DNA of 36,337 nt from a virus: IMG/VR virus record IMGVR_UViG_3300013947_000013, positions 1-36,337 of that record; one strand, given 5' to 3'. Shown piece after piece: positions 1 to 36,337 of the stretch. Positions within the stretch are counted from its first letter, which is position 1; the number at the start of each line of letters is the position of its first letter. The translations under genes were made by a program, and so were the position numbers. The notes beneath the pieces are model-generated. The model had not been told where the DNA came from. It searched no databases and saw nothing but the letters and a program-made list of their open reading frames with translations.

Positions 1-77
1 GCATTTAATATTATGGAAAGAATGACACCTGAAGGTATGGTAAAATATGCTCAATCTGAATTATCTGAAGCTTATGA
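1..77 (+). repeat. Left copy of the 77-bp terminal overlap (identical to 36261..36337)
   Basis: Base-by-base comparison: gcatttaatattatggaaag...ttatctgaagcttatga occurs at both ends. Confidence 0.95.
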
Positions 78-2553
78 CAAAATGGTTAAGAATAAATCTA
101 AAGAATGGATAGATAAATATAGAAAAGACTTTGACTTAAAGCCTGATGAGGTAAAGTTTATCATGGATACAATGCAAGAAGTACAAAATATGGAAGATGG
201 CTATGATAAAAGAGTTAAACTTGCAGAAATACAAAAATTAATGACCGATAAACTGCCACCTGAAAAAGGTGCAAAAATTAGATCTTGGATGAGAATATCT
301 ATGCTGTTTAATCCTAAGACTCAAGTAAGAAATGTTGCTGGTAATGCTTTAATAATGCCAGTTAATTCTTTTGGCGATTTATTCTCTAGTTATGCTGATA
401 AGTTAATTGCTAAGAAAACTGGTGTAAGAACAACCGGCACTACTAATGTAAAAGCAATGCTTAAAGGTATTAAAAAAGGAGCCTATGAGGCTACTAACGA
501 CTATAAAAAAGGAATCAATACCAAAGATATGGAAGGCAATAGATTTGAAATATCAGATGGTAAATCATTTAGCGAAAAAAATTTAATGGGAAGGACTCTA
601 AATAGAACAGAGTCTTTATTAAATTATGTTATGGATGTCGGTGATAGAGTATTTAGTGAAGCGGCTTTTGAAAATTCATTACAAAACCAATTAGTATTAA
701 ACAATACTACCGAAATCACACAAGAAATGATAGATATAGCACATCAAGAGGCTTTATCTAGAACTTGGAATGATAATAATAACTATACCAGATTTGTTTT
801 GGGTGTAAGAAAAGGACTAAATAAATTAAATGTTAATGGTTATGGTCTTGGTGATATATTGATACCATTTGCCAAAACACCAGCTAATTTAACAAAGGCA
901 ATTGTTGATTATTCACCTGCCGGTTTGGTTAGTGCCATAAATAAAGGTATTAATTTAAAGAGGTCACTTGCAAATGGACAATACACTGCCACTATGCAAC
1001 ATGAATTTGTTCAAAGTTTAGGAAAGGCTACTGCTGGTACTATGTTATATATACTTGGTATTGCACTTGCGAAGGCTGGAATAACAAGCGGTGATAGTGA
1101 TGATGACAAAGATACTGCCAATTTCTTAAAAAATACTTTAGGAATTAATTCTTATTCAATTAAAATTGGTGGTAAGTCATTTACTTATGATTGGGCTCAA
1201 CCTTTGGCTGCTCCATTATCAATAACTGCTGATGTAGTTAATTCTAAAAGTAGCGATTCTAAAGCATTATTAGAAGGAATAGTCGGTTCCTTAGATAGTG
1301 CTGGAAGTATTTTGCTGGAGCAATCATTTTTGCAAAGTATAAATGATGTTCTTAATGATAATGATGGTGTTGTATCCGGAATTATTAATGAAATATTAGA
1401 ATTACCTGCTAGAGCAGTTCCTACTTTTTCTAAGCAAATAGCAGATTTAGTAGATGGTACTCAAAGAACTTCATTTGAATATGGAAAGCCAATTCAAAGC
1501 GCGGTAAATAGCATAAAGGCAAAAATACCTTTTGCAAGTAAAACTCTAAATCCTGTAGTAGATACTATGGGCAGAGAAATACAAAAATATGGTGGAAAGA
1601 ATAATATCTTTAATGTATTTTTAAATCCTGCCAATGTTAGCACAGAAAATATAAGTGAATCTGCTGAGGAAATATATAGGCTGTACAAAGAAACTGGAGA
1701 GACAGATGTTATGCCTAGAGTAGCCCCTTACTATATAAATCAAAAAGGCGAAAAGATTATGATGACAGGTAAAGATAGAGTTGAATATCAAAAAATATCT
1801 GGTGAAATAATAGAAGATAATATCAAAAAACTAATTAATAATGTATCTTATTCAAATATGTCCGATTCAGATAAGGCAAATGTTGTTAAAGATATAGTTA
1901 ATTATTCTTATAACATCGCCAAAAAGGATGTATTAGGATTAGAACTTTCTAATACATATCAAAAAGCATATGAATATTCTGAAATAGGAGATATAGGAGA
2001 TTATTATACATTTAAAGAAAGTATTGATAATACTGATAAAGATACCAAAAAGGCTAGTATAACTAAATTCTTGATAGATAGTGATTTGACTAATGAACAA
2101 TTAGCATATTTATATGGTAATTATTATTCAAGTGATAAAGTTTTAAATGCTTTGGTACAATCAAACATACCAATTAAAGAATACATAAAGTTTAATTCTG
2201 AAACATTTGAGAGTGATTATTATACAAATGGCAAGACTGTACCTAATTCTAGAAAAAATAAAGTGATTAAGTATATTAATAGTTTAAATCTTAGTATTCC
2301 TCAAAAAGCAATGCTTATTAAAATGGAATATAGTAGTTTTAAGCAATACGACAACCAAATAGTTAAATATGTTAATAATATTGATTGTTCTTCCTATGAT
2401 AAAAAAGTAATACTAAAGACTATCGGATTTACTAGTTATGATAAGGATATAATTAATACTATCAACTCTAAAAATATATCTGTTGAAGAAAAGGCCAAAG
2501 AGTTAGAAGAATTAGGTTTCAAAGTAAGAAATGGTAGGGTGTATACAAAATGA
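1..2553 (+). CDS. Giant polyvalent virion protein, C-terminal 850 codons (continuation of 31719..36260)
   Basis: Position 1 is in frame with the track ORF 13..2553, and codons 1-12 have no stop. 36261 is in frame with 31719 (4542 nt = 1514 codons). TGA at 2551-2553. The Met at 13 in the track is an internal residue. Confidence 0.9.
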   Translation, partial: AFNIMERMTPEGMVKYAQSELSEAYDKMVKNKSKEWIDKYRKDFDLKPDEVKFIMDTMQEVQNMEDGYDKRVKLAEIQKLMTDKLPPEKGAKIRSWMRISMLFNPKTQVRNVAGNALIMPVNSFGDLFSSYADKLIAKKTGVRTTGTTNVKAMLKGIKKGAYEATNDYKKGINTKDMEGNRFEISDGKSFSEKNLMGRTLNRTESLLNYVMDVGDRVFSEAAFENSLQNQLVLNNTTEITQEMIDIAHQEALSRTWNDNNNYTRFVLGVRKGLNKLNVNGYGLGDILIPFAKTPANLTKAIVDYSPAGLVSAINKGINLKRSLANGQYTATMQHEFVQSLGKATAGTMLYILGIALAKAGITSGDSDDDKDTANFLKNTLGINSYSIKIGGKSFTYDWAQPLAAPLSITADVVNSKSSDSKALLEGIVGSLDSAGSILLEQSFLQSINDVLNDNDGVVSGIINEILELPARAVPTFSKQIADLVDGTQRTSFEYGKPIQSAVNSIKAKIPFASKTLNPVVDTMGREIQKYGGKNNIFNVFLNPANVSTENISESAEEIYRLYKETGETDVMPRVAPYYINQKGEKIMMTGKDRVEYQKISGEIIEDNIKKLINNVSYSNMSDSDKANVVKDIVNYSYNIAKKDVLGLELSNTYQKAYEYSEIGDIGDYYTFKESIDNTDKDTKKASITKFLIDSDLTNEQLAYLYGNYYSSDKVLNALVQSNIPIKEYIKFNSETFESDYYTNGKTVPNSRKNKVIKYINSLNLSIPQKAMLIKMEYSSFKQYDNQIVKYVNNIDCSSYDKKVILKTIGFTSYDKDIINTINSKNISVEEKAKELEELGFKVRNGRVYTK

Positions 2554-3689
2554 TAAATAAAAGAGATATAAATAAGTTACGAACACCAGAAGATTTAGAG
2601 AGAAAGTACAATAAGACACTTAATGATATTTTGACATTAAAAGAAAACTATGAATTGCAAAAAAACGGACTTAATAAAGTAGAAAATGAGTTAAATGGCT
2701 TTGTTATTGCAACAGGTAAGAACTTAAAAGAACTTCAAGACCAGGTAGATGGCAACATTACTACCTGGTTTTATTCTGGGGTTCCTACGGATGTTAATGA
2801 GCCTGCTAAAGATTGGACTACTGATAATGAAAAAAATAGTCATTTGGGCGATCTTTACTACGACAAAGATACTGGCTATGCTTATAGATACTCACTTGAT
2901 AATGATGTTTATAGTTGGAGAAAAATTACCGACAATGATGTTACTCAAGCTCTTGCAATAGCAAATAGTGCTAAAGATACCGCTGATAGTAAGAGAAGAG
3001 TTTTTGTGGTTGAGCCAACAACACCTTATGATTGCGGAGATTTATGGATTAAAGATGAAGAATTATATAGATGCCAAACCACTAAATCAAAGGATGAAAC
3101 ATTTGAAGAAAATGATTGGATAATTGCTACTAAGTATACCGATGATACAAAAGCAAATCAAGTAGGAGAAAATCTTACTATATTAAGTGGAACAGTTACT
3201 GAAATAAGAAATGATGTTGATAAATTAAATACTACTATGACAAATACAACTTCACTTGTTGATGAACAAGGTAGAAGCATAGGTATTTTGCAAGAACAAC
3301 AATCAGAGGTTACCCAAACAGTAAACAATTTTGATATATCTATGAAAAATGTACAAAAAACATTAGATACTCAAAATGGTACTATTCAAACACTTGAAGG
3401 CAAAATAACTGATATGAATTTTAGTTTCAGTACTAAAGGTTTATCTGTAGGGACATCTAATGATGCAAATAATTCATTGCTTGACAACAGAGGTATAAAA
3501 GTATATAACTACGAAAAATTAAATGCAATCTTCAACAATAAAGGTTCTGGTATAGAAAAGCTTATAGTTACCGGAACTGCACAAATAGGATATTTGAAAT
3601 TCATTAAATCTACTAAAAATGGTGAAAAAGGAACAAAAATATTCCATTTGAAAGAATTAATTGAAGATTTGGAAGATTTGGAGGTGTAA
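2550..3689 (+). CDS. Tail fibre / minor structural protein
   Basis: ATGA overlap with the giant gene's stop. Sits in the tail module. N-terminal coiled coil, then a W/Y/D-rich segment (GDLYYDKDTGYAYRY, GDLWIKDEELYRC) of the kind seen in Firmicute phage fibre proteins. Confidence 0.55.
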   Translation: MINKRDINKLRTPEDLERKYNKTLNDILTLKENYELQKNGLNKVENELNGFVIATGKNLKELQDQVDGNITTWFYSGVPTDVNEPAKDWTTDNEKNSHLGDLYYDKDTGYAYRYSLDNDVYSWRKITDNDVTQALAIANSAKDTADSKRRVFVVEPTTPYDCGDLWIKDEELYRCQTTKSKDETFEENDWIIATKYTDDTKANQVGENLTILSGTVTEIRNDVDKLNTTMTNTTSLVDEQGRSIGILQEQQSEVTQTVNNFDISMKNVQKTLDTQNGTIQTLEGKITDMNFSFSTKGLSVGTSNDANNSLLDNRGIKVYNYEKLNAIFNNKGSGIEKLIVTGTAQIGYLKFIKSTKNGEKGTKIFHLKELIEDLEDLEV

Positions 3690-3692
3690 CAT

Positions 3693-5129
3693 ATGGCAAC
3701 ATTAACAACAAGTTTTCAAAAGTTAGGAGAAGCCTATATTGGTACATCCGGTGGTAGTTTATATGTAAGAATATATGCAAAGTATACAAAACAAGATATA
3801 GCAAACAATAGAACTTATGTAGTTTATGAAGCCAGAAGTTACTACGATAAAGCAAGTTATATATATGACCAACAAGGTAGTATTGGTGTAAGTGGAACAA
3901 GTGCTGATTATCAAAGTGCCGGATGTACTAGACCAACTGGTATAGGGGAAAGCGTATCTGTTTCTACTGAGGGTTGGGTATATCACAACAATGATGGAAC
4001 AAAGAGTATTAGTTGTGCTGCTTCAATTAGTTTTCCAAACTGGGGTTGGGGTAATACAGCATATGGCAGCGCAGACTTACCTAGAATACCAAGAGCCAGC
4101 GGTGTTGCTTGCAGTAGTCCTTACATTGGTGATAATGCCATCATTAGTATTGACAAAAAAGCATCATCATTTACAAGCAGAGTTACTTACAAGATTAAAA
4201 ATTTGGTGGGAAATATTGAAGATAAAACTAGTGAAACTACGATACAATTTAAAACCAGTGAAATAGAAGATAAAATATATGCATTAATACCTGATGCTAA
4301 AGAGATAAAAGGTAATATTTTGTGTACAACCTACAATGGTGATACACAAATCGGTGATACACAAGCTACAGAATTCAATTTATATGCTAAAGAAAGTGTG
4401 TGTAAGCCTGATGTAACCGCTACTATAGTTGATACTAATACAAGTGTTACGAGTATAACTGGCAGTAATACTAAATTTGTTAAGTATATATCTAAACCAA
4501 AAGTAACTGTATCTGCTACTGCTAAAAAGAGTTCAACAATTAAAAGTTATTCTATTAATTTGAATGATGGTCAAACTTCAAACTTACAAGAGAATACTTT
4601 TGATAGCATTGGCTCAAACAAAGTAACTGTATCTACTACTGATAGTAGAGGATATTCTAGTTCATCAGATGTTGAGTTAGATATGATTGATTACATTAAG
4701 TTACACATAAATACTATATCAATAACAAGACCAGAGGGTACTTCCAATGAGGCTATTTTAAATTGCAATGGTGCATATTACAATGGTTCATTTACTGATA
4801 CTACTGCTAATACTCTTAGTGGTAGTTTTAAATATAGAAAATCAGGAACTACTGACTGGATTGATGGTGGAAGTATAATTCCTACTATTACTGATAATAC
4901 ATTCAAAATAGCCAATTTATCACTGGGGTCTTCTTTTAATTATGAGGAAGAATATCAATTTGAAATATCATTTGAAGATAAGTTCGTTATTGCTAAAGAA
5001 GTTGTATCTTTGGAAAAAGGTAGAGAAACTATTTTTGTTGGCGATAACAAAGTTTATGTATATGGTAGTGCATATTTAAATGATTATCCAATTCTTTACT
5101 TCACTGAAGAAGAGGAATGGGAAGAATAG
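3693..5129 (+). CDS. Tail / receptor-binding structural protein
   Basis: 478-aa ORF 4 nt after the previous stop. Ser/Thr-rich, beta-type composition with an internal repeated KVTVS(A/T)T segment. Assigned by position. Confidence 0.5.
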   Translation: MATLTTSFQKLGEAYIGTSGGSLYVRIYAKYTKQDIANNRTYVVYEARSYYDKASYIYDQQGSIGVSGTSADYQSAGCTRPTGIGESVSVSTEGWVYHNNDGTKSISCAASISFPNWGWGNTAYGSADLPRIPRASGVACSSPYIGDNAIISIDKKASSFTSRVTYKIKNLVGNIEDKTSETTIQFKTSEIEDKIYALIPDAKEIKGNILCTTYNGDTQIGDTQATEFNLYAKESVCKPDVTATIVDTNTSVTSITGSNTKFVKYISKPKVTVSATAKKSSTIKSYSINLNDGQTSNLQENTFDSIGSNKVTVSTTDSRGYSSSSDVELDMIDYIKLHINTISITRPEGTSNEAILNCNGAYYNGSFTDTTANTLSGSFKYRKSGTTDWIDGGSIIPTITDNTFKIANLSLGSSFNYEEEYQFEISFEDKFVIAKEVVSLEKGRETIFVGDNKVYVYGSAYLNDYPILYFTEEEEWEE

Positions 5130-12036: not shown

Positions 12037-12069
12037 AAATCCAACCAAAGACAAAAAAAGGAGAAGTGT

Positions 12070-20475: not shown

Positions 20476-20541
20476 GATATAACCTTATGTAGAGATATAG
20501 CAAGTGGACACAGAAAAGAAGTTCAAGATAGAGAAACCATA

Positions 20542-20993: not shown

Positions 20994-21031
20994 CAATATC
21001 AGGGGAATAAGGTTATGGAAAGGGGAAGTAA

Positions 21032-21965: not shown

Positions 21966-21970
21966 TGAAG

Positions 21971-23897: not shown

Positions 23898-24043
23898 TGA
23901 AAAAGAAAATGTTAAGAAAGTTAAGAGAAACTTGCAATGAATTAATTGGAGAGAAAGAAACTAATAAGATAATAACTGAAGCGATAGAGGAAGTATTAGA
24001 AGAAACTAAACCTAAAAAGAAAACAAAAAAAGGTGATAAGTAA
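23897..24043 (+). CDS. Small basic/acidic ORF (48 aa) coupled to terL
   Basis: TAATG overlaps at both ends (23895-23899 and 24041-24045). Below the track cutoff. Confidence 0.45.
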   Translation: MKKKMLRKLRETCNELIGEKETNKIITEAIEEVLEETKPKKKTKKGDK

Positions 24044-24294
24044 TGGAAACAATAGCATTACTTTTTTTATTTGGTATTTTTATAATTTTATCTTATACTT
24101 TAGGACTTAAAAATGGTCAAAAGTTAAAGAACGAAGAAGAAATAAAAATACCAGAAATTAATCCTGTTAAGATAGTTAGAAATGAAATAGAAACTTTTGA
24201 ACAAAAGAAGAAACAAGACGCCTATGATACTATGATGGCTAATATTGATAACTATGATGGAACAGGACTAGGACAGAAAGATATACCTAGTTAG
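24043..24294 (+). CDS. Small protein with N-terminal TM helix
   Basis: IALLFLFGIFIILSYTLGL. Translationally coupled to the upstream ORF. Confidence 0.5.
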   Translation: METIALLFLFGIFIILSYTLGLKNGQKLKNEEEIKIPEINPVKIVRNEIETFEQKKKQDAYDTMMANIDNYDGTGLGQKDIPS

Positions 24295-24305
24295 GAGGTG
24301 TCAAG

Positions 24306-26012
24306 ATGGATTTAAATGAATTAAAAGAAACTGATATATGGGAATTATATGAAAAAGGTAGAAACTATAATCGACTAAAGAATCTATATTCAGATACTGA
24401 TAAGAATTATAGAATGTACAATGGCAATCAGTGGGCTGGATTAAAGATTAGTGGAATAGAGCCTATCCAGTTAAATATAATTAAACCTATAGTTAAATAT
24501 AAAATATGTGTTATAAACGAGAATGAGTTTATGGCTGTATATAGTGCAGAAAACTTTGAGAATAAAGAGTTTAAAGAAGTGGCAAATAAAACTTGCGAAC
24601 TTCTTAATAAATTAGCTGCTAAAACATGGGAAAAAAACAATATGGACTATAAGACCAGAGCCATAAGTAAACATTCTGCTATTAATGATGAATGTCCTAT
24701 TTATGTAGATTATGATGAAGAAACAAATTTGCCAATAGTTGAAATATTGTCAAAAAACGATGTGTATTATGGCAATGAAAATGATTCGGACATACAAAAC
24801 CAACCATATATTTTAATCAAACATAGAAAACCAGTTATTAATACTATTGAAATGGCTAAATTATCAAAAATATCAGAGGACAAATTAAAGTATATAGTTG
24901 GTGATAATGATACTTTTGAAGAGGCTGGAGAAGATTCTAGAGAAGAAAAAGATGATATGGTGACTATCATCACTAAGCTATATAAAGAAAATGGTACAGT
25001 CCATTTTAGTCAAGCAACAAGATATTGTGATATTAGAGAAGACAAGGACACTGGACTAACCCTTTATCCGTTAGAGCATATGCTTTGGGAAGAAAAAGAG
25101 GGATATGCTAGAGGAGAAGGTGAGGTTAGATATTTAATACCTAATCAGTTAGAGATTAACAAAACCATAATGAGAAGATTAATATCTGCCAAAACTACTG
25201 CTTATCCACAAAAGATTGTTGATGTATCTAAAGTTCAAAACCCTAATGCAATAGACAAAGTCGGAGGCACTATTAAAGTTAATGGCCAAACTGTAGATGA
25301 TGTTAAAAAAGCAATTGGAGTTCTTCAACCAGCACAGATGAGTGCAGATGTCGAAAAGGTAATGAATGAGTTAATATCTACTACTAGAGAATTAGCAGGT
25401 GCGGGTGATATCGCTACTGGTGATGTTAATCCAGAAAGTGCAAGTGGCAAAGCAATACTTGCAGTTCAAAGAGCCTCACAAATGCCTGTAACCGAACAAA
25501 CAATATCACTAAAAGCAACTTTAGAAGGATTGGCAAGAATATGGTTAGATATGTGGAAAACATATGCTACAGATGGTTTAGTAATAGACTATGAAGAATC
25601 TAATCCAACTACTGGGGAAGTAAGTTCTAGACCGGTTAAGGTACCTTATAGTGTATTGCAAGAACTACAAGCAAATGTAAAGATAGATATTACACCTAAG
25701 AGTCCTTATGATAAATATGCACAAGAGTTATCGTTAGAAAATATGTTAAAGGCAGGATACTTTACTGCTGAAAAACTAGCAGAACTAGAAGTATATGTAA
25801 GTTTATTAGATGATGACAGTTCGATGCCTAAATCTAAGTTAGAAGAAGCAATAAAGAAAATGAAAGAATCTCAGCAAAGAATAGCAGACATTCAGACACA
25901 GGCTCAACAATTAAAAATGCAAGCCAATAACTTTATTGCTAATCAGCAAGATATAACAGGTATAGGGCAATATGGAAATCAATTAATTAATCAAGCAATG
26001 GCTACTAGATAG
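24306..26012 (+). CDS. Portal (head-tail connector) protein
   Basis: SD AGGAGGTG. 568 aa. Lies after the terminase and before the scaffold. Confidence 0.8.
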   Translation: MDLNELKETDIWELYEKGRNYNRLKNLYSDTDKNYRMYNGNQWAGLKISGIEPIQLNIIKPIVKYKICVINENEFMAVYSAENFENKEFKEVANKTCELLNKLAAKTWEKNNMDYKTRAISKHSAINDECPIYVDYDEETNLPIVEILSKNDVYYGNENDSDIQNQPYILIKHRKPVINTIEMAKLSKISEDKLKYIVGDNDTFEEAGEDSREEKDDMVTIITKLYKENGTVHFSQATRYCDIREDKDTGLTLYPLEHMLWEEKEGYARGEGEVRYLIPNQLEINKTIMRRLISAKTTAYPQKIVDVSKVQNPNAIDKVGGTIKVNGQTVDDVKKAIGVLQPAQMSADVEKVMNELISTTRELAGAGDIATGDVNPESASGKAILAVQRASQMPVTEQTISLKATLEGLARIWLDMWKTYATDGLVIDYEESNPTTGEVSSRPVKVPYSVLQELQANVKIDITPKSPYDKYAQELSLENMLKAGYFTAEKLAELEVYVSLLDDDSSMPKSKLEEAIKKMKESQQRIADIQTQAQQLKMQANNFIANQQDITGIGQYGNQLINQAMATR

Positions 26013-26102
26013 TTATTGCTTTTTAATAGTCCAAGCATTGTAAGACTTTAAAAGAAGATGGAATAGTGAAGTCAAACACTTAAAAAAATAGGAGGAAAGA
26101 AA

Positions 26103-26996: not shown

Positions 26997-27854
26997 ATGG
27001 CTGTAACTAATTTCCAACAAACGATTTGGAGTAAATCGATTTTAAAAGCATTGGATACCATTACATCTCTAAGAAACCATTGTGATTTCAAATATGAAAA
27101 GGATAGCAAGAATGCTAAAGAAGTAAAGATTTTAAGTGTTTCTAGACCTACTATAAAGAATTATGTTAAAGGTACAGAAATAGAACTTGAAGGTTTAACT
27201 GATTCTAGTCAACTATTGCAACTTAATCAATACAGATACTTTAATTTTGAGGTTGAAGATATTGATAAAGCACAATCAGTTCCTGGTTTAATGGAAGAAG
27301 CTTCAAGACAATCTGCTATCGGATTAAAAGAAGAAGGAGATAAATATGTTGCTTCTATTGTAAAAACTGCAACAGAGGCTACATCAGATGCTTTAGCACA
27401 AAGTTCATCAGTTATTGCATTAACTGCAAGTAATGCTATGGCTAGTGTCGAAGCAGGATTTACTAAATTATATGAGAATAATGTTCCAGTATCAGAATCA
27501 TTATATCTTGAAGTATCTCCAAAAGTCTTTACTACTTATAGACAATCTTTAACCGAACTATCTACAAATAATCCTGAAATAATCAAGAAAGGTGCTGTTG
27601 GTAAGATTAACAATGCTTTTGTTTGCATTGAAAATCTATTACCTACTGGTAAAAAGGCTGCTGCTTCTACTACTGATGATGTAACTTATAACATCTTAAG
27701 AACAGGAAAAGCTATTGCTTTCGCTGAACAAATTGAAAAGGTAGAAGCATATAGACCAGAAAAAGCTTTCCAAGATGCATTAAAAGGATTATATGTATTC
27801 GGTGCTAAAATTGTTAACCCTAAAGAAATCTATATAATGAAAACTGAGATGTAA
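26997..27854 (+). CDS. Major capsid protein
   Basis: 285 aa. Assigned by position after the scaffold, by being followed by a terminator, and by composition typical of small HK97-fold coat proteins. Confidence 0.75.
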   Translation: MAVTNFQQTIWSKSILKALDTITSLRNHCDFKYEKDSKNAKEVKILSVSRPTIKNYVKGTEIELEGLTDSSQLLQLNQYRYFNFEVEDIDKAQSVPGLMEEASRQSAIGLKEEGDKYVASIVKTATEATSDALAQSSSVIALTASNAMASVEAGFTKLYENNVPVSESLYLEVSPKVFTTYRQSLTELSTNNPEIIKKGAVGKINNAFVCIENLLPTGKKAAASTTDDVTYNILRTGKAIAFAEQIEKVEAYRPEKAFQDALKGLYVFGAKIVNPKEIYIMKTEM

Positions 27855-27880: not shown

Positions 27881-27955
27881 TGCCATATGGTGAAGTGGTA
27901 ACACATTGCACTTTGACTGCAACATTCCCTAGTTCGAATCTAGGTATGGCAACCA
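27881..27955 (+). tRNA. tRNA-Gln (anticodon UUG), 75 nt with encoded CCA
   Basis: Acceptor TGCCATA / TATGGCA (U1:A72). D-arm GTG-AAGTGGTAA-CAC. Anticodon arm TTGCA-CTTTGAC-TGCAA. Variable loop CATTC. T-arm CCTAG-TTCGAAT-CTAGG. Then A-CCA. Confidence 0.9.
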
Positions 27956-28333: not shown

Positions 28334-28888
28334 ATGACATTACTAGAAATGAAGAAAAAAGTATTGAGACTGATTGAGGAAATAAATGATAAAAGTGCCT
28401 TATTAACTGATGATCCTGACATAGCAAACAAAATAAATGATGTTATAAATCAGATTCAAAATGAACTTGCCAGAATAAAAAAAATACCTGCTAAAGAAGA
28501 ATTAGAAGTAACTAAAGGTGATGAGATTGACTTTTCTGAGATAGCAAAGGATTTATTTCAAATTAACATTGTTAGGGGAGTTGAAAATGATATTATAGGT
28601 AATACTATTAATTTCTATGGTGATGGTATTGCTAAAATATATTATTACAAGTATCCTAAACAAATAACTGCTGATACAAAAGATAGTGAGTTTACTTTTG
28701 ATTTATCAACAGATGTACTTGAAATAATGCCTTATGGTGTGGCTGGTGATTTACTTAAATCTGATATATCAGCTAGTTATGGACAAGTTTATTCAAATAG
28801 GTATGAACAAATGTTACAAAGATTAGATCCAAGATTTCATACTGGTAGTATTTATCTAGAAGGAGATGGTACTTATGAGTTCTTATAG
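28334..28888 (+). CDS. Putative head-tail adaptor
   Basis: 184 aa. Occupies the position of the adaptor in a T7-like gene order. Confidence 0.35.
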   Translation: MTLLEMKKKVLRLIEEINDKSALLTDDPDIANKINDVINQIQNELARIKKIPAKEELEVTKGDEIDFSEIAKDLFQINIVRGVENDIIGNTINFYGDGIAKIYYYKYPKQITADTKDSEFTFDLSTDVLEIMPYGVAGDLLKSDISASYGQVYSNRYEQMLQRLDPRFHTGSIYLEGDGTYEFL

Positions 28889-30596
28889 TAGTTCTGGCGG
28901 TGTTCCTAGTGGAGCATTAGTTACTAGAAAAGTAGATAACTTTGCAGGTGTTGATTTCAGTAATAGTGATACTAATTTATCTAGAAGTCCTGATAGCTTA
29001 AATATGTGGAAAAATTACAAAAATAATAGTGCTGGAATAGAAACAAGACCTGATATGGAATTAGTAGAAGAATACAATAATACCATATTAGGTCTCTTTT
29101 TTTATGATATAGGCAATACTACTCATAAAATAGTCCATTCAGGAACTAAACTTTATGATAATGGTACCGAAATATTTAGTGGTATGAATTTGATTAGAAG
29201 TCAGGCTTTTATATTTAATAATATATTTTATATAAAAGATGGTTTAAATTATCTTGAATACAATGGAACTGAAATAAAAGAAGTAGAAGGCACTATACCA
29301 ACTACTACCATAGGAGATCCTACTGGGGAGGGAACAACATATCAAGATGTAAATTTACTTACTGGACTTAGAAAGAATCTAAGAATAGGTGATGGTGTAA
29401 CGACAAAGTTTAAACTAGATACCGAAAACATAGATAGTGATTATGTGGTAACTGCTAAAGTAACTATAGGACTAGACACACTTACTTATGTTCAAGGCAA
29501 AGACTTAACAGTAAATGTTACAGAAGGAAGTATTACTTTTAATACTGCTCCTGCTAAACCTACTACTGATGGTCAACACAATGTTGAAATATTATTCAGA
29601 AAGACTATTCAAGGATATAGAGATAGAATTAACAAATGTACTATGCTAGCAGTATTTGATAACAGAGTATTTTTTAGTGGAAATCAAGATTATCCTAATG
29701 CTATTTTCCATAGTTCATTGGAAGATCCTAGATATATTAGTGATTTAGATTATTACAACGAGGGAATGGATTTAGCAAAGGTAAAGGCACTGATACCTAG
29801 TAATAATGCTCTATGGGTGTTAAAAGAGCCATCACAAGCAAATACTACAGTCTTTTATCATAATCCAGTTGTTGATAGCACATATGGAAAAATATATCCA
29901 TCAGCACATTCAAGCATAACAACAGGTTGTGTCTCTACTGGAATTAACTTTAATGATGATATAGTTTTCTTTTCTGATAGAGGTATGGAAGCAATTAGTG
30001 GAAATATTACTTCAGAGCAATTACTAGCGCATAGATCTAGTATGGTTGATGGTAAATTATTAAAAGAATCAAATTATAAAAATATGATGTTAGAAGAATG
30101 GGAGGGCTATCTTTTAGTAATTATAGATAACAAAATTTATTTAGCAGATAGTAGACAAAAATATCAAAATATAAATGTTGAATATGAATGGTATTATTGG
30201 GAGTTATCTTGTAATATTACTTGCACTTCAGTTAAAAATGGAGTGCTTTATTTATGTGGTAACAATAAGATTTATAAGTTAACCAAAACTAATGGTGAAA
30301 TAAGTTCTTATTGGACTACTAAGCATGATGATTTCAAATACTCAGAATATCAAAAGACAACTAATAAAAGGGGCGGTACTGCTGAAGTAAAAGGTGAAAA
30401 CATAAAAATAGAAGTTAAAACAGATAATAACGACTTTGAAGAGGTTAATACTTATGACAATGTTAAGGGATACATAGTTTATAGAATTAAAAAGAAAAAA
30501 TGGAAACGATTACAAATGAAATTTAGTTCTACTAAACCATTTGGTTTAAATAATTATACATTAGAATCATTTGTAGGCGGATATGTAAAGAGGTGA
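28875..30596 (+). CDS. Putative tail tubular / nozzle protein with beta-propeller-like repeats
   Basis: SD GGAGATGG before ATG 28875 (the track start is 28866). Recurrent blade-like segments: NIFYIKDG, NRVFFSGN, ALWVLKE, DIVFFSDRG, NKIYLAD, GVLYLCGNNKIYKL. Confidence 0.4.
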   Translation: MSSYSSSGGVPSGALVTRKVDNFAGVDFSNSDTNLSRSPDSLNMWKNYKNNSAGIETRPDMELVEEYNNTILGLFFYDIGNTTHKIVHSGTKLYDNGTEIFSGMNLIRSQAFIFNNIFYIKDGLNYLEYNGTEIKEVEGTIPTTTIGDPTGEGTTYQDVNLLTGLRKNLRIGDGVTTKFKLDTENIDSDYVVTAKVTIGLDTLTYVQGKDLTVNVTEGSITFNTAPAKPTTDGQHNVEILFRKTIQGYRDRINKCTMLAVFDNRVFFSGNQDYPNAIFHSSLEDPRYISDLDYYNEGMDLAKVKALIPSNNALWVLKEPSQANTTVFYHNPVVDSTYGKIYPSAHSSITTGCVSTGINFNDDIVFFSDRGMEAISGNITSEQLLAHRSSMVDGKLLKESNYKNMMLEEWEGYLLVIIDNKIYLADSRQKYQNINVEYEWYYWELSCNITCTSVKNGVLYLCGNNKIYKLTKTNGEISSYWTTKHDDFKYSEYQKTTNKRGGTAEVKGENIKIEVKTDNNDFEEVNTYDNVKGYIVYRIKKKKWKRLQMKFSSTKPFGLNNYTLESFVGGYVKR

Positions 30597-30602
30597 TAAG
30601 AA

Positions 30603-31706
30603 ATGGCAATTTATGATGTTAATTACGATGACAAAAGATTCAAAGATGTCGAAAATGAAAAACAAAGTGAATTAAATAAATATAATGAAACTTATGATAA
30701 TTTAATAAATGAAAGAAATAACTTTACTAAAGAACAACAAGATATGGTTGATAGATGGGAGAACACTCAAAAAGATGTAGCAAATAAAAATCTTGAATAT
30801 CAGAAAGATTTAATCGAACAACAAAGAAAAAAATCTGAACAAGCATATCAAAATGAGGCTAAAGCATCTTATATTGATTATCAAAAAGAAGTTGATAAAT
30901 ATGGTGTTAGTAGAGAAAATGTTGTAAATAATGGATTATCTAATAGTGGTTATGCTGAAAGCTCAAAAGTTGATATGTATAATACTTATCAAAATAGACT
31001 TGGTACTGCAAGAAAGAGTATGCAAGATGCTGGAATAGAGTTTGATAATGCAATTAGACAAGCACAATTATCTAACGATGAAACACTAGCCCAAAATGCT
31101 TTAAAAGCATTACAAGATAAATTAAATATTGCATTAGAAGGATTTAATTATAAATCAGATCAGGAAAATAATAGATTGAATTGGAATAATACGATTAATA
31201 ATAATTATTACAACAGATATAAAGATGTTGAAAGTCAAATTAATTATGAAAATGAAACTGCTGAGAAAATTAGACAATACAATGAGAATATGGCTTATCA
31301 AAAGGAACAACAAAGATTAGAACAACAAAGATGGGAACAACAAATGGCATACCAAAGAGAACAAGATGCTATTGCTAATGCTCAAAAATGGGCTAGTATA
31401 AATGCTAGTTACAGCAGTGGTGGAAGTTCTTTGTCAGATGGTGGAAGCCTTAATGATGGTGGCAATAGTAGTTCTTCTAGTAGTTCGTCATCAAATAACA
31501 ATTTAATAAAGAGTAAATATAATAGTTGTCCAGCATTATCTAGCAAAAAAGCTAATAACTGGTCTAATTCTAATATATTTACTTCTAATACTATAAAAAA
31601 TGGTATTTCTGAATCTGAATTAGAAAGAAAAATATCTGCAGGTTTAAAAAATAAATCTATTACTAAAAAAGATGCAGATAAAATATTAACTTGGTTTGGC
31701 CTATAA
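30603..31706 (+). CDS. Coiled-coil, Q/N-rich putative internal virion protein with a Ser-rich tract
   Basis: 367 aa with long heptad-like Q/E/K-rich regions and SSGGSSLSDGGSLNDGGNSSSSSSSSS. Lies directly upstream of the giant gene. Confidence 0.4.
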   Translation: MAIYDVNYDDKRFKDVENEKQSELNKYNETYDNLINERNNFTKEQQDMVDRWENTQKDVANKNLEYQKDLIEQQRKKSEQAYQNEAKASYIDYQKEVDKYGVSRENVVNNGLSNSGYAESSKVDMYNTYQNRLGTARKSMQDAGIEFDNAIRQAQLSNDETLAQNALKALQDKLNIALEGFNYKSDQENNRLNWNNTINNNYYNRYKDVESQINYENETAEKIRQYNENMAYQKEQQRLEQQRWEQQMAYQREQDAIANAQKWASINASYSSGGSSLSDGGSLNDGGNSSSSSSSSSNNNLIKSKYNSCPALSSKKANNWSNSNIFTSNTIKNGISESELERKISAGLKNKSITKKDADKILTWFGL

Positions 31707-31718
31707 GGTGGTGATTAT

Positions 31719-34700
31719 ATGAGTAGTATTCGAGAGAGATTACTTGGGAAATCAAAAAGAAATTCTAGTATAAGAGATAGACTAGAATTGAATAGTTCAT
31801 ATTATAAACAAGAATATAATGATCAATTATCAAAAAGAAATAATATTCAAAAAGATATACAAAAAAACACTTATGAAAAGGGAGTTCAAACTACAGTAAC
31901 TCCTTTTTCAACACAAAGAAATATTTTACCTATTCAAGAACAGACTGAAATTACTAAAAACAAAAGATTTGAAGTAACTGCTGGTCAAGATAAATTGGGG
32001 CAAAATAAAAGCATAGAAAATAAGTATCAAGAAATAAAAAAATCAAATGAATATAAAAATCAGATGAAACAATTAGAAGAGCAATCAAATGAAGTTGGTT
32101 ATGCTAAATATAATTACGATAAACAAAGAATTGCAGAAGATGATATTGGCTGGTATGATAAATCTATAGGAAGACTTACAGGCGGTATAGGAAGCCTTTT
32201 TGATTATAATGGTGGATTAATAAAAAATGAAAATGGTGACTTAGAATATTTACCTACATTTAATCAAATGAAACACCAAAAAGTTAAAGAAAATTATAAA
32301 ACTGGTATAGGTAGATTTGTTGGTGATGTTTTATATGAAAGTGGTAAAATAGCGGGATCAACATTGATTAATCAAGCTTTACCTGGTGTTGGTTCTACTA
32401 TGTATTTTGGAAAAATGTTTGTGGATAGTACCAATCAAGCGGTTTCAGATGGTTATGATACTAGTAGTGCTACAATGTATGGTTTGGTTAATGTTGGACT
32501 TGAATATGGTGTTGGTAAGATGCTCGGTAGTGCAACTAAAGGATTGACTGGAGGCAAGACTAGTGAATATGAAAAATTACTAAAAGAAACATTTACTAAT
32601 ATAACAAAGAAGCCTAAAATTGCAAATATTTTAGCAAATGCAGGCAGTGAGGCTACTGAAGAATTTGTTCAAGAATATTTAGATAATATTAGTAAATTGC
32701 TTATTTTAGATAAAAATACTAATATTAAAGATTATGCTTCTGTTTTCTTAGATGGTGGTGTACTTTCTGATGCTTTATATTCTGCTGCTATAGGTGGTGT
32801 TACAGGTGGAATTATAGGTACTGCTACTGGCAAAGATACAAATGTAGAGAATAAAGATGTAAATCTATATAAAACATTTAAAGAAGAGTTAGAAGAAACA
32901 AAGAAAAATACTACAAACAAAGAAACCATTAATAAAATAGACACAATTATTTCTAATATTAATAGTAATATTAATAATAATTCAAATGTTAATACTAATG
33001 TAGATACGATAACTTCACAAATTAGTGAATATGAAACATTAAAAGAACAAAATAAATTGACTAATGAACAAGAAATAGAATTGAACGAACTTAAGAATCA
33101 ATTAAGTGCTATTCAAAATCAAAATACTGACACAAGTACTTCCATAAAAGAAGAGGCAAACTTACCAACAGTACAAGATATAGTTAATCAAGAAAAATCA
33201 AGACAAAGTGGCCTTAATTTGCCAGTATATAATCAACAAAGTAATGTTAATAACTCTGATAAGGTTATTTTGCCAACTGTGAACGATTTTAATAGTTCTA
33301 GTATAAATATACCTACTAGTGATATAAAGGTTGATATGGCTAAAATAAACCCTGAAATATTAAATGATATTAAAGGATTTAAATTAGGAGATCCTAGTAT
33401 TGAAAGTTATAAAGGTAGTTACATTAAAACAATGTTAAATGAAGTTGGTATAAAAGTGCCTACTGCTATGAATTATGTAAGTGAAGTAAGACCAGACATG
33501 AGTTTTACTACAACTAAAGATTTAACTAGACAACAATATGCTTCAATTGGAAATGCTCTTCAAAAACTAAGAAGTGTAGATGTGACTAGTGTTAATAATG
33601 CTAATTATAGTATTCCAATAGGCAATTATCAATATGTTAAAAGCTCTAATGCAAATATAAATGAATTAAGAAGAACTGCAAGTATGTATTTAAACAATAC
33701 TGCTAGATCGAACAATACTATTAAGTTGCTAGAGAATATAATAAAAGATAGGAATTATATAATAAGATTCAATCCTAATATAACTAATGAACAAGGTGTA
33801 CCTGTTAATGGATTAATTACAAAAGAAAATGGTAAAACTATAATTGAATTAAATCCTAATGCTGATAATTATGTTGAATTTTTGGTTGTTCATGAAATAA
33901 CTCATGACATAGCAACAAAAGAAATGAAGGAATTAATACTTGATTATGCTAAACAAGATCCTGAGTTTGAAAAATCATTAGAATCACTAAAAGAAAGATA
34001 TAAAACTAATGATGTATCAGATGAAGTCGTAGCAGATGTATGCGGTGAATTGTTTGGTAATAGAGAATTTATTCAGTCAGTAGTAGAAAAGAAGCCTAAT
34101 ATATTTAAGAAAATACTAAATAATATTAGAAAATTAGCAGAAAAAATTAAGGGCACTGGTGCTAATGAGTATGTAAGTTTTGTTGAAAAGTTAAAAACTA
34201 TGTGGGAAGATGCTTATTATAGTAATAAGAGTAACCTTAAGAAAACTGAATATATGATGACAGGAATAAAAGGTGCTAGAAATGCTATAAAAAATGATAG
34301 TTATAATCAATTTTTAAATGACAATTATAATAAAGCATTAATATATAAGAAAAATAATATTGAAAATGAGCAAATTCGTAGAAGGACTGGATGGTTTCAA
34401 GACAGCAAAGGTGATTGGAAATTTGAGCTTAGTGATGACGAGGCCAAAATTATTAAGAAATTAGAAAAAAATAATACATATCAATTGAATGAAATATTAA
34501 ACCATAATGATTTATATGAAATGTATCCTAATTTAAAAAATAATAAAGTTAAATTTACTGATTTTGGCATAAGAACTGATGAAGATGGAAAAAAATACAT
34601 AAAAAAAGGTAGAATTAATAATATAACAAATACTATATCATTGAATAATGAATTAATATCTAAGGGAAATGATGCAGTATTAGATACATTAATACACGAG

Positions 34701-36337
34701 ATTCAACATAGAATACAAAAAATTGAAAAGTTTACACAAGGAACTACTTCTGCTATTGGATTTGAAAATTATCAAAATAACTTTGGTGAAAAAGAAGCAA
34801 GAGATACATCAAATAGAAGAAAAATGAACTATGAAACTAGACTCAAAACACCACCTATATCTTCGTTAACTGATAATATAATTGACAAAAACAAAAACAA
34901 ATGGTATTCTTTAAATGAGGTTGAACAAGATGCTCAAGAAAATAATACAATTTCTTCGCAAAATGTATCTGAAAATATTTATAGCAGAGGAAAATTGGGA
35001 AGAAATACCAAAGGACAAGAACTAGAAAATAGTTCTTTTTCTTTCGATAATAAAGGCAGAAAATTATCAAAAGGGCAACAAGAATACTTTAAAGATAGTA
35101 AGGCTAGAGATGAAAATGGAAATTTAAAGGTTTTATATCATGGCACACCAAACGATTTTACTAAATTTAGCTATGATAAATTAGGAACAAATGGAACTTT
35201 GTTAGGTAAAGGATTTTATTTAACTGATGATATTAATGTTGCCAAAGCCTATGCTAGTAAAGGCGAAAAAGGGAAGGTAATGGAATTGTACGCTGACATT
35301 AAAAAGCCTTTAAAATGGGGAGAAAAATCTATTTCTAAACAACAATATAAATCTTTTGTAGAATCAATAAATGAAATTACAAATGGTACGTTGTTTGCTG
35401 ATTACAGTGGTGAATATAGTGAAAAAGGAAGCACACAATATAATTCTACACTGAATGACATATTGATGGATTATGAATATGGTGGAGATGATATTGATTT
35501 AGTATCTGGAATATTAAATACAACTGGTATGTCTTGGAATAAGGGATACAAGATTTTAAAAGATACAACAGGTTATGATGGAATAATAGTTACAACTGAT
35601 GTTTACGATAGTGGTGAAGGTAATGTATATATACCATTTCAAAGTAATCAAATAAAAAATGTGGATAACACTAATCCAACTTCAAATGAAGACATAAGAT
35701 ATTCTCAAAACACTAAAGAATGGAATGAATATTTAAAAGAGAATTTTCCATCAGCAGGAACAAAAACTAAAATGTCTGATATTAAGTTACCTGTTAGGGA
35801 AGATATAGAAAGTAGTTCTAAAAAGAGCAAGATTTTAAATCCAAATGAAATATCAAAATTAACTAAAGAAGATGCCAACACTACACCAATATTACCTAAA
35901 AGAGGAAGTGCAAATAAAGTTAATGATGGCAATAGCCATTTTGCTAAAAACATTAAAGATAAAGTTAATATGCTAAATGTAGAACAAAAGGCTGAAATAC
36001 TTTCAAAAGAAGATGTTAGATATTATGATAAAGTAACTAATAAAGAAAGTTTGGAAAAAGCTTTCAAAAAAATAAATGATGGTGGCAGTTCAGAAACATT
36101 AAGATGGGTAAAACAAGATAGTAAGAATGCAAATGCTACAGATGTAGCAGAAGGCTGGATTTTACTAAAACAATATGCTGATAATGGTGATTATGATAGT
36201 ATGGTAGAAGTTGCTAAAAAAATGAGAGAAATTGGAACAACTGCTGGTCAAACAGTACAGGCATTTAATATTATGGAAAGAATGACACCTGAAGGTATGG
36301 TAAAATATGCTCAATCTGAATTATCTGAAGCTTATGA
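31719..36337 (+). CDS. Giant polyvalent virion protein, N-terminal 1,514 codons plus overlap (ORF open at the window edge; continues at position 1)
   Basis: ATG 31719 follows SD AAGGTGGTG (31705-31713). I read every codon to 36337 and found no stop. HEITH at 33891-33905; HEIQH at 34695-34709; ART-like YHGT...GKGFYLT...GYDGIIV...GEGNVYIPFQSNQIKNV...DIRYS at about 35040-35705. The ORF is not in the supplied track because it has no stop inside the window. Confidence 0.9.
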   Translation, partial: MSSIRERLLGKSKRNSSIRDRLELNSSYYKQEYNDQLSKRNNIQKDIQKNTYEKGVQTTVTPFSTQRNILPIQEQTEITKNKRFEVTAGQDKLGQNKSIENKYQEIKKSNEYKNQMKQLEEQSNEVGYAKYNYDKQRIAEDDIGWYDKSIGRLTGGIGSLFDYNGGLIKNENGDLEYLPTFNQMKHQKVKENYKTGIGRFVGDVLYESGKIAGSTLINQALPGVGSTMYFGKMFVDSTNQAVSDGYDTSSATMYGLVNVGLEYGVGKMLGSATKGLTGGKTSEYEKLLKETFTNITKKPKIANILANAGSEATEEFVQEYLDNISKLLILDKNTNIKDYASVFLDGGVLSDALYSAAIGGVTGGIIGTATGKDTNVENKDVNLYKTFKEELEETKKNTTNKETINKIDTIISNINSNINNNSNVNTNVDTITSQISEYETLKEQNKLTNEQEIELNELKNQLSAIQNQNTDTSTSIKEEANLPTVQDIVNQEKSRQSGLNLPVYNQQSNVNNSDKVILPTVNDFNSSSINIPTSDIKVDMAKINPEILNDIKGFKLGDPSIESYKGSYIKTMLNEVGIKVPTAMNYVSEVRPDMSFTTTKDLTRQQYASIGNALQKLRSVDVTSVNNANYSIPIGNYQYVKSSNANINELRRTASMYLNNTARSNNTIKLLENIIKDRNYIIRFNPNITNEQGVPVNGLITKENGKTIIELNPNADNYVEFLVVHEITHDIATKEMKELILDYAKQDPEFEKSLESLKERYKTNDVSDEVVADVCGELFGNREFIQSVVEKKPNIFKKILNNIRKLAEKIKGTGANEYVSFVEKLKTMWEDAYYSNKSNLKKTEYMMTGIKGARNAIKNDSYNQFLNDNYNKALIYKKNNIENEQIRRRTGWFQDSKGDWKFELSDDEAKIIKKLEKNNTYQLNEILNHNDLYEMYPNLKNNKVKFTDFGIRTDEDGKKYIKKGRINNITNTISLNNELISKGNDAVLDTLIHEIQHRIQKIEKFTQGTTSAIGFENYQNNFGEKEARDTSNRRKMNYETRLKTPPISSLTDNIIDKNKNKWYSLNEVEQDAQENNTISSQNVSENIYSRGKLGRNTKGQELENSSFSFDNKGRKLSKGQQEYFKDSKARDENGNLKVLYHGTPNDFTKFSYDKLGTNGTLLGKGFYLTDDINVAKAYASKGEKGKVMELYADIKKPLKWGEKSISKQQYKSFVESINEITNGTLFADYSGEYSEKGSTQYNSTLNDILMDYEYGGDDIDLVSGILNTTGMSWNKGYKILKDTTGYDGIIVTTDVYDSGEGNVYIPFQSNQIKNVDNTNPTSNEDIRYSQNTKEWNEYLKENFPSAGTKTKMSDIKLPVREDIESSSKKSKILNPNEISKLTKEDANTTPILPKRGSANKVNDGNSHFAKNIKDKVNMLNVEQKAEILSKEDVRYYDKVTNKESLEKAFKKINDGGSSETLRWVKQDSKNANATDVAEGWILLKQYADNGDYDSMVEVAKKMREIGTTAGQTVQAFNIMERMTPEGMVKYAQSELSEAY
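36261..36337 (+). repeat. Right copy of the 77-bp terminal overlap (identical to 1..77)
   Basis: Same as above. The overlap lies inside a coding frame, so it is a linearisation artefact rather than a biological terminal repeat. Confidence 0.95.

Follow-up and report, generated by a model that had tools for sequence, protein, structure and literature searches.

Polyvalent proteins of phages and conjugative elements were described by Iyer, Burroughs, Anand, de Souza, and Aravind in 2017 (J Bacteriol; PMC5512222). More recently, gp47 of phi24B (2,811 amino acids (aa); LPD5, LPD1, LPD38, and MuF-C) was detected in the virion by mass spectrometry and proposed to be an ejection protein (bioRxiv 10.64898/2026.04.10.717836), and the DarB-like gp69 of the Burkholderia podovirus JC1, with LT, MTase, helicase, LPD3, and LPD38, was found in virions by mass spectrometry (PMC9144972). 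T7 gp16 is a soluble, helical protein with two latent transmembrane regions and an enzyme domain (PMC8954989), and in the virion RNA polymerase (vRNAP) of coliphage N4, the N-terminal region serves injection and the C-terminal one encapsidation (PMC5512222). According to a 2022 review, ejection proteins were not found in phi29-like podophages of Gram-positive hosts. The window analyzed here is the whole of IMG/VR virus record IMGVR_UViG_3300013947_000013, a stretch of 36,337 nt. Its largest gene, which encodes a protein of 2,364 aa (the giant protein), was overlooked since the circular contig was cut inside it. The product is likely a virion-packaged ejection protein of a temperate podovirus-like phage and a chassis for swappable early effectors.

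Positions 1–77 of the window are identical to 36261–36337, which is the sole terminal-repeat length found when lengths of 10–399 were tested. The plus-strand frame that begins at ATG 31719 is free of stop codons to the end of the window, where position 36261 (equal to position 1) lies in the same frame. Joining 31719..36260 to 1..2553 gives 7,095 nt, which is divisible by 3 and comprises 2,364 codons with a single stop, TGA 2551–2553. The original prediction had traced this frame across the repeat, and the joined sequence confirms it; the gene occupies 19.6% of the 36,260-bp non-redundant circle, close to the fifth that had been estimated. The 5' part is an open frame (31719..36337, plus strand), of which 31719–36260 encodes aa 1–1514, and its full-length orthologues are 94–99% identical. 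The 3' part (1..2553, plus strand) encodes aa 1515–2364 and the stop codon, which forms an ATGA overlap with a tail gene starting at 2550. The 77-bp duplicate of 1–77 at 36261..36337 is probably an assembly overlap that marks the circular path and adds no sequence. ATG 31719 is the first possible start because the preceding in-frame stop lies at 31704–31706, which is also the TAA of an upstream gene for a 367-aa protein. The Shine–Dalgarno sequence AAGGTGGTG (31705..31713, plus strand), correctly noted beforehand, overlaps this TAA and ends 5 nt before the ATG, and the two genes are translationally coupled. As had been pointed out, the list of open reading frames (ORFs; at least 70 aa) contains no plus-strand entry for 31707–36337. 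It gives three short minus-strand ORFs there and carries 13..2553, the truncated 3' part of the giant gene, which itself is absent because ORFs running off an end go unlisted.

Within the window, continuity of the gene depends on the 77-bp assembler overlap only, which would be in keeping with an artefact, i.e., two genes joined as a chimera or a contig circularised in error. However, a 1,077-bp stretch spanning the junction aligns gap-free and with 99.4% identity to L001, a 105-kb human-gut contig from an independent assembly. There, the giant gene is one continuous coding sequence of 2,364 codons within an integrated prophage, and the 77 bp are not duplicated. The junction is also contiguous in two other contigs, L011 and L012. 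Furthermore, proteins of 2,361–2,364 aa with 94–99% identity to the giant protein were called in four other contig sets, and full-length homologues number in the hundreds. The window and L001 copies of the gene differ by 82 synonymous and 36 non-synonymous changes (pN/pS = 0.11); the gene is under purifying selection, with constraint on both sides of the junction. An artefact is hardly credible, as the contiguous junction in L001, L011, and L012 effectively refutes false circularisation, and the claim of a single real gene split by linearisation is confirmed by the L001 copy and the independently called orthologues. The 77-bp overlap may most simply be explained as a k-mer overlap that the assembler left where a circular or circularly permuted molecule was opened, not as a physical terminal repeat; 77 is a standard SPAdes k, and the title of one related metagenome-assembled genome (MAG) record contains ‘K77’. 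Orthologues of the same length are already public, and one of them is named ‘Large polyvalent protein associated domain 23’ in nr. An alternative genetic code with TGA readthrough, a candidate in view of some relatives binned as ‘Mollicutes’, was set aside: table-11 ORFs tile the genome and include full-length TerL, portal, and major head protein (MCP), and the giant ORF ends in the ATGA overlap with the next gene.

Set against 120 close relatives, the giant protein falls into a constant N part (aa 1–845), two variable slots, and a constant C part (aa ~1333–2364). The constant N part consists of a K/Q-rich start, a Gly/Ala/Ser-rich domain, a linker, and zincin-like module 1. The Gly/Ala/Ser-rich domain (aa ~130–400; 32106..32918, plus strand), which includes a Gly-rich hydrophobic stretch at aa ~195–375, is present in all 120 close relatives and in at least 38 of 120 distant ones, with consensus motifs kept family-wide. 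Its helix at aa 348–366 is moderately hydrophobic (Kyte–Doolittle 1.38 over a 19-aa window), and the Pfam Gly-zipper match is weak (E 0.52); the domain is a candidate latent membrane-active region. The low-complexity linker (aa ~400–560; 32916..33398, plus strand) is rich in N, S, Q, and T, which make up a fraction of 0.49 in aa 401–500. Zincin-like module 1 (aa ~620–845; 33576..34253, plus strand) contains HEITH at aa 725–729 (33891–33905) and, downstream, an acidic helix with SDEVVAD at aa 767. The elements that the original prediction had listed in order, i.e., the Gly-rich stretch, the N/S linker, two HExxH modules (here HEITH 725 and HEIQH 993), the ART, and a hydrophobic segment, GKATAGTMLYILGIALAKAGITSG at aa 1855, are all present, and so are the K/Q-rich start and the long C-terminal region. 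That account missed that the N and C flanks are the conserved scaffold and the enzymes the variable cargo.

Variable slot 1 (aa ~846–1107; 34254..35040, plus strand) holds LPD23 (aa 875–911) and zincin-like module 2, with HEIQH at aa 993–997 (34695–34709) and GEKEARD at aa 1023. LPD23 (PF18838) scores 33.8 bits against a cut-off of 27 (E 3e-8), and the slot 1 module shares 27% identity with giant proteins of F116-like podophages; in relatives, the slot is occupied by MuF_C, LPD3, or modules without a known family. In the AlphaFold2 (AF2) model of the two zincin-like modules (pLDDT 83.8), each HExxH lies on a helix that follows a small sheet and precedes a Glu/Asp-bearing helix. Module 1 runs from a helix through three strands to the HExxH helix and further helices, including the Glu/Asp-bearing one. 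Both modules are thus predicted to contain the zincin core, i.e., an HExxH helix, a third-ligand Glu helix, and a helix with a three-stranded sheet. Module 1 of the query has no Pfam match; among 40 homologues, four reached DUF6782 ‘putative metallopeptidase’ (1.7e-5 in L008), and eight of 40 homologues of the HExxH modules reached SprT-like (3e-7). MPTase-PolyVal gave a weak match only, in a relative's version of module 2.

Variable slot 2 (aa ~1108–1332; 35041..35713, plus strand) is an ART-PolyVal cassette. The match to PF18760 covers aa 1131–1321 and profile positions 1–139 of 140, with 89 bits against a cut-off of 31.2 (E 6.5e-25). In this family, which belongs to the Tox-ART-HYD2 clade, the active site is formed by H from strand 1, Y from strand 2, and D from strand 5 (PMC5512222). 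The candidate residues here are H1141, Y1167, and D1287. YHGT (H1141) and GYDG(I/V) (D1287) are kept in all three divergent versions of the cassette, whereas GKGFY (Y1167) occurs in only two of them, the third (P0096) having GFW in its place. Judging from the motifs, YHGT, GKGFY, and GYDG(I/V) probably correspond to the H-Y-D site, with the placement on strands being deduced. With ART-PolyVal, LPD23, and two HExxH modules, the protein combines two or more domains of disparate predicted activity, as polyvalent proteins do. The Pfam scan of the 2,364-aa product found matches beyond low-complexity sequence, and the assignment of the product to the polyvalent proteins of Iyer et al. is supported by ART-PolyVal and LPD23 above curated cut-offs, the late-module position, and the signature modules of relatives.

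The central region differs among otherwise nearly identical phages. Among 118 close homologues, 16 central-region architectures were found, and the backbones that bear these different cassette combinations, at least 16 in all, are 97–99% identical around a cassette region of 0.7–1.8 kb. LPD23-zincin alone is found in 55 clusters, LPD23-zincin with an unnamed 133-aa module in 31, and the query type, LPD23-zincin with ART, in four. Further cassettes comprise MuF_C (a PBECR-type RNase domain), LPD3, two more versions of ART-PolyVal, and several family-less modules, and natural length variants on the same backbone range from 2,063 to 2,461 aa. From TerS to 35040, L011 matches the window at 99% identity; exactly 35041–35713 (the ART cassette) is then missing, and the alignment continues beyond it at 94% identity. 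L012 follows the window at 98.3% identity as far as 34234, holds another cassette block of 1.7 kb there, and rejoins it at 35695. These clean DNA breakpoints (34234/35695 in L012 and 35040/35714 in L011) sit in short conserved linker-coding stretches (...AYYSN[KR]S, ...ELENSSF, and ...KEWN[ED]YLK). At the cassette boundaries, neither long direct repeats or microhomology beyond the linker-coding sequence nor a compositional break (GC 0.25–0.30) was observed. In the ART cassette, only 1 of 657 nt differs between the window and L001, compared with a pS of ~0.06 in the flanks of the same gene, which suggests that the cassette has recently spread horizontally between backbones. The variation is consistent with an arms race against host defences in which phages exchange early effectors by recombination. 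In L012 (Logan SRR9866675 contig, 37.6 kb), the head module is 98% identical, a large serine recombinase replaces the tyrosine integrase, a 648-aa collagen-repeat tail protein stands in for that of 379 aa, and the endolysin is of the Amidase_2 instead of the M23 type; module swapping therefore extends to integration, host recognition, and lysis.

The constant C part is composed of a helical core of ~1,000 aa (the C-core) and a tail of ~100 aa. It begins at aa ~1333–1514 (35714..36260, plus strand), where identity is 85–100% in close and 47–72% in distant relatives. The main body of the C-core (aa 1515–2259; 1..2235, plus strand) is almost wholly alpha-helical in the AF2 model. No Pfam or NCBIfam family matched the C-core, and NCBIfam gave nothing relevant for the whole giant protein and its neighbours. 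A search seeded from a 52%-identical relative retrieved 505 proteins at E<=1e-10, mostly of 1,500–1,780 aa and from 35–40-kb contigs. An exhaustive scan of 1.84 billion representatives, with family clusters counted at 50% identity, gave 9,026 C-core matches at E<=1e-3 and 3,176 at E<=1e-30. Almost every listed protein has its match at or close to the C-terminus; sizes extend from ~500 to 3,261 aa and are mostly 1,300–3,260 aa. Eighteen diverse C-core proteins carry in front of it ART-PolyVal (eight proteins), LPD23, MuF_C, PBECR3/5, GNATs, Pol-beta NTases, and RadC/JAB, and the C-core is therefore a general chassis for polyvalent cargo.

Four independent lines of evidence link the C-core to internal virion proteins of podophages. 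The PHROG scan gave a weak match to phrog_6651 ‘internal virion protein’ (4e-7). When the C-core model was compared with BFVD using Foldseek, ‘internal virion proteins’ of the Synechococcus podophages S-CBP2, S-RIP1, and S-CBP3 were retrieved (E 1e-8 to 4e-6), together with C-terminal parts of other viral polyvalent proteins, all as predicted structures. In a relaxed tblastn search, eight of 11 weak C-core matches (best 1e-5) fell in genes labelled ‘internal virion protein (D)’ in T7-like phages. By hhalign, internal virion protein D of Desulfovibrio phage ProddE aligned with a probability of 93.7% (E 1.9e-7); the 265 aligned columns take in IPFAKTPANL, a YSIKIG..F.Y motif, and the hydrophobic helix. 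The homologous segment comprises aa 1800–2116 (856..1806, plus strand), with IPFAKTPANL at aa 1802 and YSIKIGGKSFTYDWAQP; its hydrophobic helix at aa 1855–1878 (1021–1092 of the window) has a Kyte–Doolittle value of 1.47. In both T7 and ProddE, the gp16-class gene lies directly 5' of the tail fibre gene, and the same holds for the giant gene. Thus, some T7-like phages appear to encode a homologue of the C-core as their internal virion protein D (gp16 class), with T7 gp16 itself undetected.

The extreme C-terminal tail (aa 2260–2364; 2236..2550, plus strand), ending in ...LEELGFKVRNGRVYTK, is present in 93 of 120 distant relatives. The giant protein of L007 (9377–15976) shares the N part and the LPD23-zincin module (53% identity), but an LPD38-type core, as in Page gp20, phi24B gp47, and JC1 gp69, stands where the C-core would be. 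Of the constant C part, it keeps just the last ~100 aa (hhalign 99.5% between the two tails). The tail is a candidate packaging or docking element because it is retained where the core is of another type. Homology of the C-core to the LPD38-type cores of Page gp20 and the L007 giant was rejected within the sensitivity of the searches: BLASTP was not significant, hhalign probabilities were 0.2% and 0.05%, and PF18857 (LPD38) had no match in the giant protein. The broader proposal that N-domain, C-core, and C-tail form a very large ejection chassis (at least 9,000 clusters) of podovirus-like phages of monoderm gut bacteria, distantly homologous to the gp16 class and carrying, between linker ‘handles’, effector cassettes that co-circulating phages exchange by recombination, is a tentative one, to which we give slightly less than an even chance. 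If it is true, the cassette slot would be a minable catalogue of first-minute anti-defence and host-takeover enzymes, and gp16-class ejection proteins would not be confined to phages of diderm hosts.

The giant gene lies inside the late structural module, with TerS, TerL, portal, and MCP genes upstream and tail genes downstream, is translationally coupled on both sides, and is found within integrated prophages in L001 and L011. Its product would be made with the structural proteins, packed inside the capsid, and, at infection, expelled via the portal and the short tail. The two latent hydrophobic regions (aa ~348–366 and 1855–1878) may help to form or anchor a conduit through the envelope, as proposed for gp16. 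The central enzymes would thus reach the cell at the onset of infection, before any phage gene expression. There, the ART (H1141/Y1167/D1287) might ADP-ribosylate a host target, and the zincin-like peptidases might cut the polyprotein at its conserved linkers, as proposed by Iyer et al. on the analogy with P1 DdrB, or cleave host proteins. The gene could also be read as a polymorphic toxin or lysogeny factor of the prophage, released at lysis or secreted, that hits competitors or benefits the lysogen and is not injected by the virion. Cassette polymorphism between conserved flanks does resemble polymorphic toxin loci, and HYD2-family ARTs also occur in polymorphic toxins and could act in (pseudo)lysogeny (Iyer and colleagues, PMC9503650). 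Yet its place in the late structural operon, its translational coupling on both sides, and the apparent homology of its constant core to an internal virion protein all argue against such a role, and the searches detected neither an immunity gene beside it nor a secretion signal or a trafficking domain of MuF/Rhs/LXG type; we consider it quite improbable.

Another possibility is a pure ejectosome or wall-breaching protein, whose peptidases digest peptidoglycan or wall for the short tail, with an incidental or inactive ART and no delivery of cytoplasmic effectors. Such a role was proposed for the gp47 metallopeptidase by the phi24B authors, and T7 gp16 has a wall-degrading domain; moreover, zincin module 1 belongs to the constant region, and the commonest variant (55 of 118 clusters) has LPD23 and zincin without ART. 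However, the swappable modules (ART-PolyVal, PBECR/MuF_C RNases, GNATs, NTases, and ParB-like) are typically of intracellular kinds, the H-Y-D motifs of the ART are intact and its cassette is under constraint, and the phage has a separate M23 endolysin. In addition, zincins of the SprT-like and DUF6782 families are not known to be wall hydrolases. A purely wall-breaching function is therefore unlikely in our judgement.

Some observations weigh against a packaged ejection protein with enzymatic cargo. Support for packaging and ejection is indirect, drawn from sequence and analogy, and the podovirus morphology itself is deduced from gene content only. The link to the gp16 class consists of one profile match at 93.7% together with annotators' labels in T7-like phages, and T7 gp16 itself has no detectable similarity to the C-core (hhalign 0.3%). 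The AF2 model of the C-core is of moderate confidence (pLDDT 68.9) and is poor right at the hydrophobic helix. The TM-scores of the BFVD matches are low (0.26–0.41) and refer to predicted, not solved, structures. The hydrophobic peaks (Kyte–Doolittle 1.4–1.5) remain under the usual transmembrane threshold. No solved structure matches the C-core or the two-zincin model. A sequence search of the PDB gave a chance match only (E 0.37). With Foldseek, the best PDB match of the C-core had an E value of 0.26, the cyanophage A4 pre-ejectosome (E 3.3) was not significant, and the two-zincin model gave no usable match (best E 0.35). As for the two HExxH modules that had been predicted, the motifs are present, but those of the query fall below every curated metallopeptidase cut-off, with module 2 sub-threshold to SprT-like (E 0.13) and DUF3920 (5e-4). 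Since no significant solved structure was found for the two-zincin model, the modules are only probable zincin-like peptidases, not proven ones, on the basis of motifs, predicted topology, and homologues.

A genome map was derived from PHROG and Pfam scans. It contains a tyrosine integrase (9436–10509, minus strand), a repressor-like regulator (10843–11754, minus strand), an exonuclease/Sak4 fusion (12573–13991, plus strand), a primase-helicase (15009–16757), TerS (21962–22402), TerL (22395–23897), portal (24306–26012), and major head protein (26997–27854). Tail/fibre proteins are encoded at 2550–3689, 3693–5129, and 5256–5663, and an M23-type endolysin at 7187–7921. The two tail/fibre genes directly 3' of the giant gene (379 and 478 aa; 2550..5129, plus strand) match tail PHROGs at 1e-50 and 3e-67. 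Four unnamed genes (117, 184, 576, and 367 aa) lie between the head protein and the giant gene, with one PHROG of unknown function among them. The latter two, directly 5' of the giant gene, occupy 28866..31706 (plus strand). The 576-aa protein is 27.6% identical to Page_15 ‘virion structural protein’. The 367-aa protein (30603–31706, plus strand) is Q/N/S/E-rich and coiled-coil-like with a run of nine Ser, and it has no family match, including PHROG; it may be a second internal or ejection protein.

Whether the phage is short-tailed bears on a further reading of the giant gene as the tape measure protein (TMP) of a long-tailed phage. Position directly 5' of tail genes would suit a TMP, as would length, helicity, hydrophobic segments, and Gly-rich stretches, and tape measure proteins can hold embedded enzymes. 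The scans, however, found no match for tail tube, sheath, tail chaperone, or TMP in any ORF, and no major tail protein family either. The portal is of P22 type; orthologous loci have a precomputed P22_portal match and a faint SU10_adaptor match. The nearest cultured relatives are Page-like: the only cultured relatives of the portal (24–26% identity) and of the 576-aa protein are ~40-kb Bacillus megaterium phages (Pagevirus), and the Page portal is annotated ‘podovirus-type’. Moreover, a ruler varying from 2,063 to 2,461 aa on one backbone would shift tail length by ~20%, and the core appears homologous to gp16-class proteins. The TMP reading was rejected, with neither tail tube and chaperone neighbours nor a TMP family match, and has very little probability left.

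With the P22-type portal, the Page-like relatives, and no tube or TMP genes found, the phage is regarded as podovirus-like. It appears to be temperate, to infect uncultured low-GC Bacilli of the gut, and to have Bacillus phage Page as a distant relative. The MAGs in which relatives of the giant gene occur come from human and rabbit gut and bear the labels uncultured Bacilli, ‘Mollicutes’, and Clostridia. When the whole giant protein was searched by tblastn against 50,697 phage records (E<=1e-5), matches were limited to the LPD23-zincin module, in F116-like Pseudomonas podophages and one Bacillus phage, and the giant gene therefore has no close cultured relative. In the integrated relatives, similarity to the window stops near 9139 (L001) or 8200 (L011), with host genes beyond. 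Both prophages occupy the same host integration site; past the prophage end (23573 onward in L001 and 22680 onward in L011) lie genes for a LysR regulator, a CTP-transferase-like protein, and an MBL-fold protein. The attP site is probably at ~9140–9435, between a minus-strand gene for a 198-aa protein and the tyrosine integrase, and the contig junction would therefore be unrelated to the integration site.

Some other features of the genome may be mentioned. The lysogeny region (~9000–12500, minus strand) has a GC content of 0.21–0.24, compared with 0.26–0.32 elsewhere, and reversed GC and AT skew. The 472-aa ORF at 12573–13991 (plus strand) joins an exonuclease-like N half (phrog_298) to a Sak4-like single-stranded DNA-annealing ATPase C half (phrog_2872, 1e-72), and it appears to be a fused recombination module. 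A tRNA-Gln gene (anticodon UUG; 27881–27955, plus strand) follows the gene for the major head protein and precedes the next structural one. Between portal and scaffold, L001 (4041–4304) and L011 (4032–4304) carry an extra gene of 87–90 aa with a Tad2-like (anti-Thoeris) Pfam match; the window is without it (gap ~26013–26102), and the alignment jumps at 26025.

Methodologically, linearisation inside a gene hid 20% of the coding capacity of this genome, its most informative gene included, from the ORF track; circular contigs should be rotated or wrapped before genes are called. The locus is a clean population-level case of effector-cassette exchange on a near-identical human-gut phage backbone. 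For a part of polyvalent proteins that has no Pfam or NCBIfam family, the proposed link to the gp16 class suggests a specific mechanism of delivery that can be tested. If the protein is indeed packaged and ejected, the slot modules (ART, PBECR RNases, zincins, GNATs, NTases, and modules of unknown kind) would be candidate early anti-defence effectors of phages that infect uncultured gut Bacilli, and the chassis may be of interest for protein delivery.

Collectively, the giant protein extends the framework of Iyer et al. and the recent virion-proteomics precedents and overturns no current view; what it adds is the podovirus-like context, the link of the C-core to gp16-class ejection proteins, and cassette exchange on near-isogenic backbones. 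The polyvalent proteins of Iyer et al. are likewise multidomain giants encoded in a phage late-gene context with portal and terminase, contain ART-PolyVal, LPD23, and HExxH modules, and have mosaic orthologue architectures. They were predicted to be packaged and delivered with the DNA, as may be the case for the giant protein. Unlike those families, most of the giant protein, i.e., its ~845-aa N and ~1,000-aa C parts, matches no Pfam family, LPDs included. Beyond that framework, its C-core can be tied to gp16-class proteins, and exchange is documented at the DNA level among near-isogenic gut prophages. As with phi24B gp47 and JC1 gp69, the giant protein is a giant podovirus polyvalent protein encoded among structural genes. 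Those two differ in their Gram-negative hosts, their cargo, and their detection in virions, whereas the giant protein is known from sequence alone. Their C-terminal region contains LPD38, and the C-core of the query has no detectable similarity to LPD38-type cores (hhalign 0.05–0.2%).

The gp16 class (ProddE gp34 and the pelagiphage and cyanopodovirus homologues) shares with the giant gene the position directly 5' of the tail fibre gene. Its members are also helical and soluble-looking with latent hydrophobic helices and have an enzyme in the same polypeptide, such as the lytic transglycosylase in T7 gp16; for ProddE protein D, there is apparent profile homology over ~300 aa, hydrophobic helix included. 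The giant protein is about twice as long, however, with interchangeable non-muralytic enzymes and a monoderm host. The vRNAP of N4, gp50, is also a giant (~3,500 aa) with a central enzyme and a zincin-like HExxH module, and it is encapsidated and ejected. Its RNA polymerase cargo is not swappable, and no sequence similarity to the giant protein was detected. MuF-domain toxins and MuF-fused effectors similarly combine a conserved virion scaffold with variable effectors (ART, RNases, and RelA/SpoT) that are predicted to be injected. In MuF systems, the scaffold is a MuF/SPP1 gp7 head protein with a C-terminal effector, whereas the giant protein is without a MuF N-domain and its variable modules are internal; the MuF_C/PBECR nuclease appears in its family merely as one optional cassette.

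Finally, Bacillus phage Page encodes gp20, a 1,679-aa ‘hypothetical protein’ that, like the giant protein, is encoded at the end of the structural module, and that contains LPD38 (3e-27). Page gp20 differs in gene order, is without the ART and zincin modules, and has no significant pairwise or profile similarity to the giant protein. Its gene, Page_20, lies at 19786–24825 of NC_022764, in a phage with a Gram-positive host and a portal annotated ‘podovirus-type’. Given its LPD38 domain, Page_20 is a giant of the polyvalent or ejection type that has gone unannotated, and Page, being in culture, offers a tractable model for the packaging of such giants.

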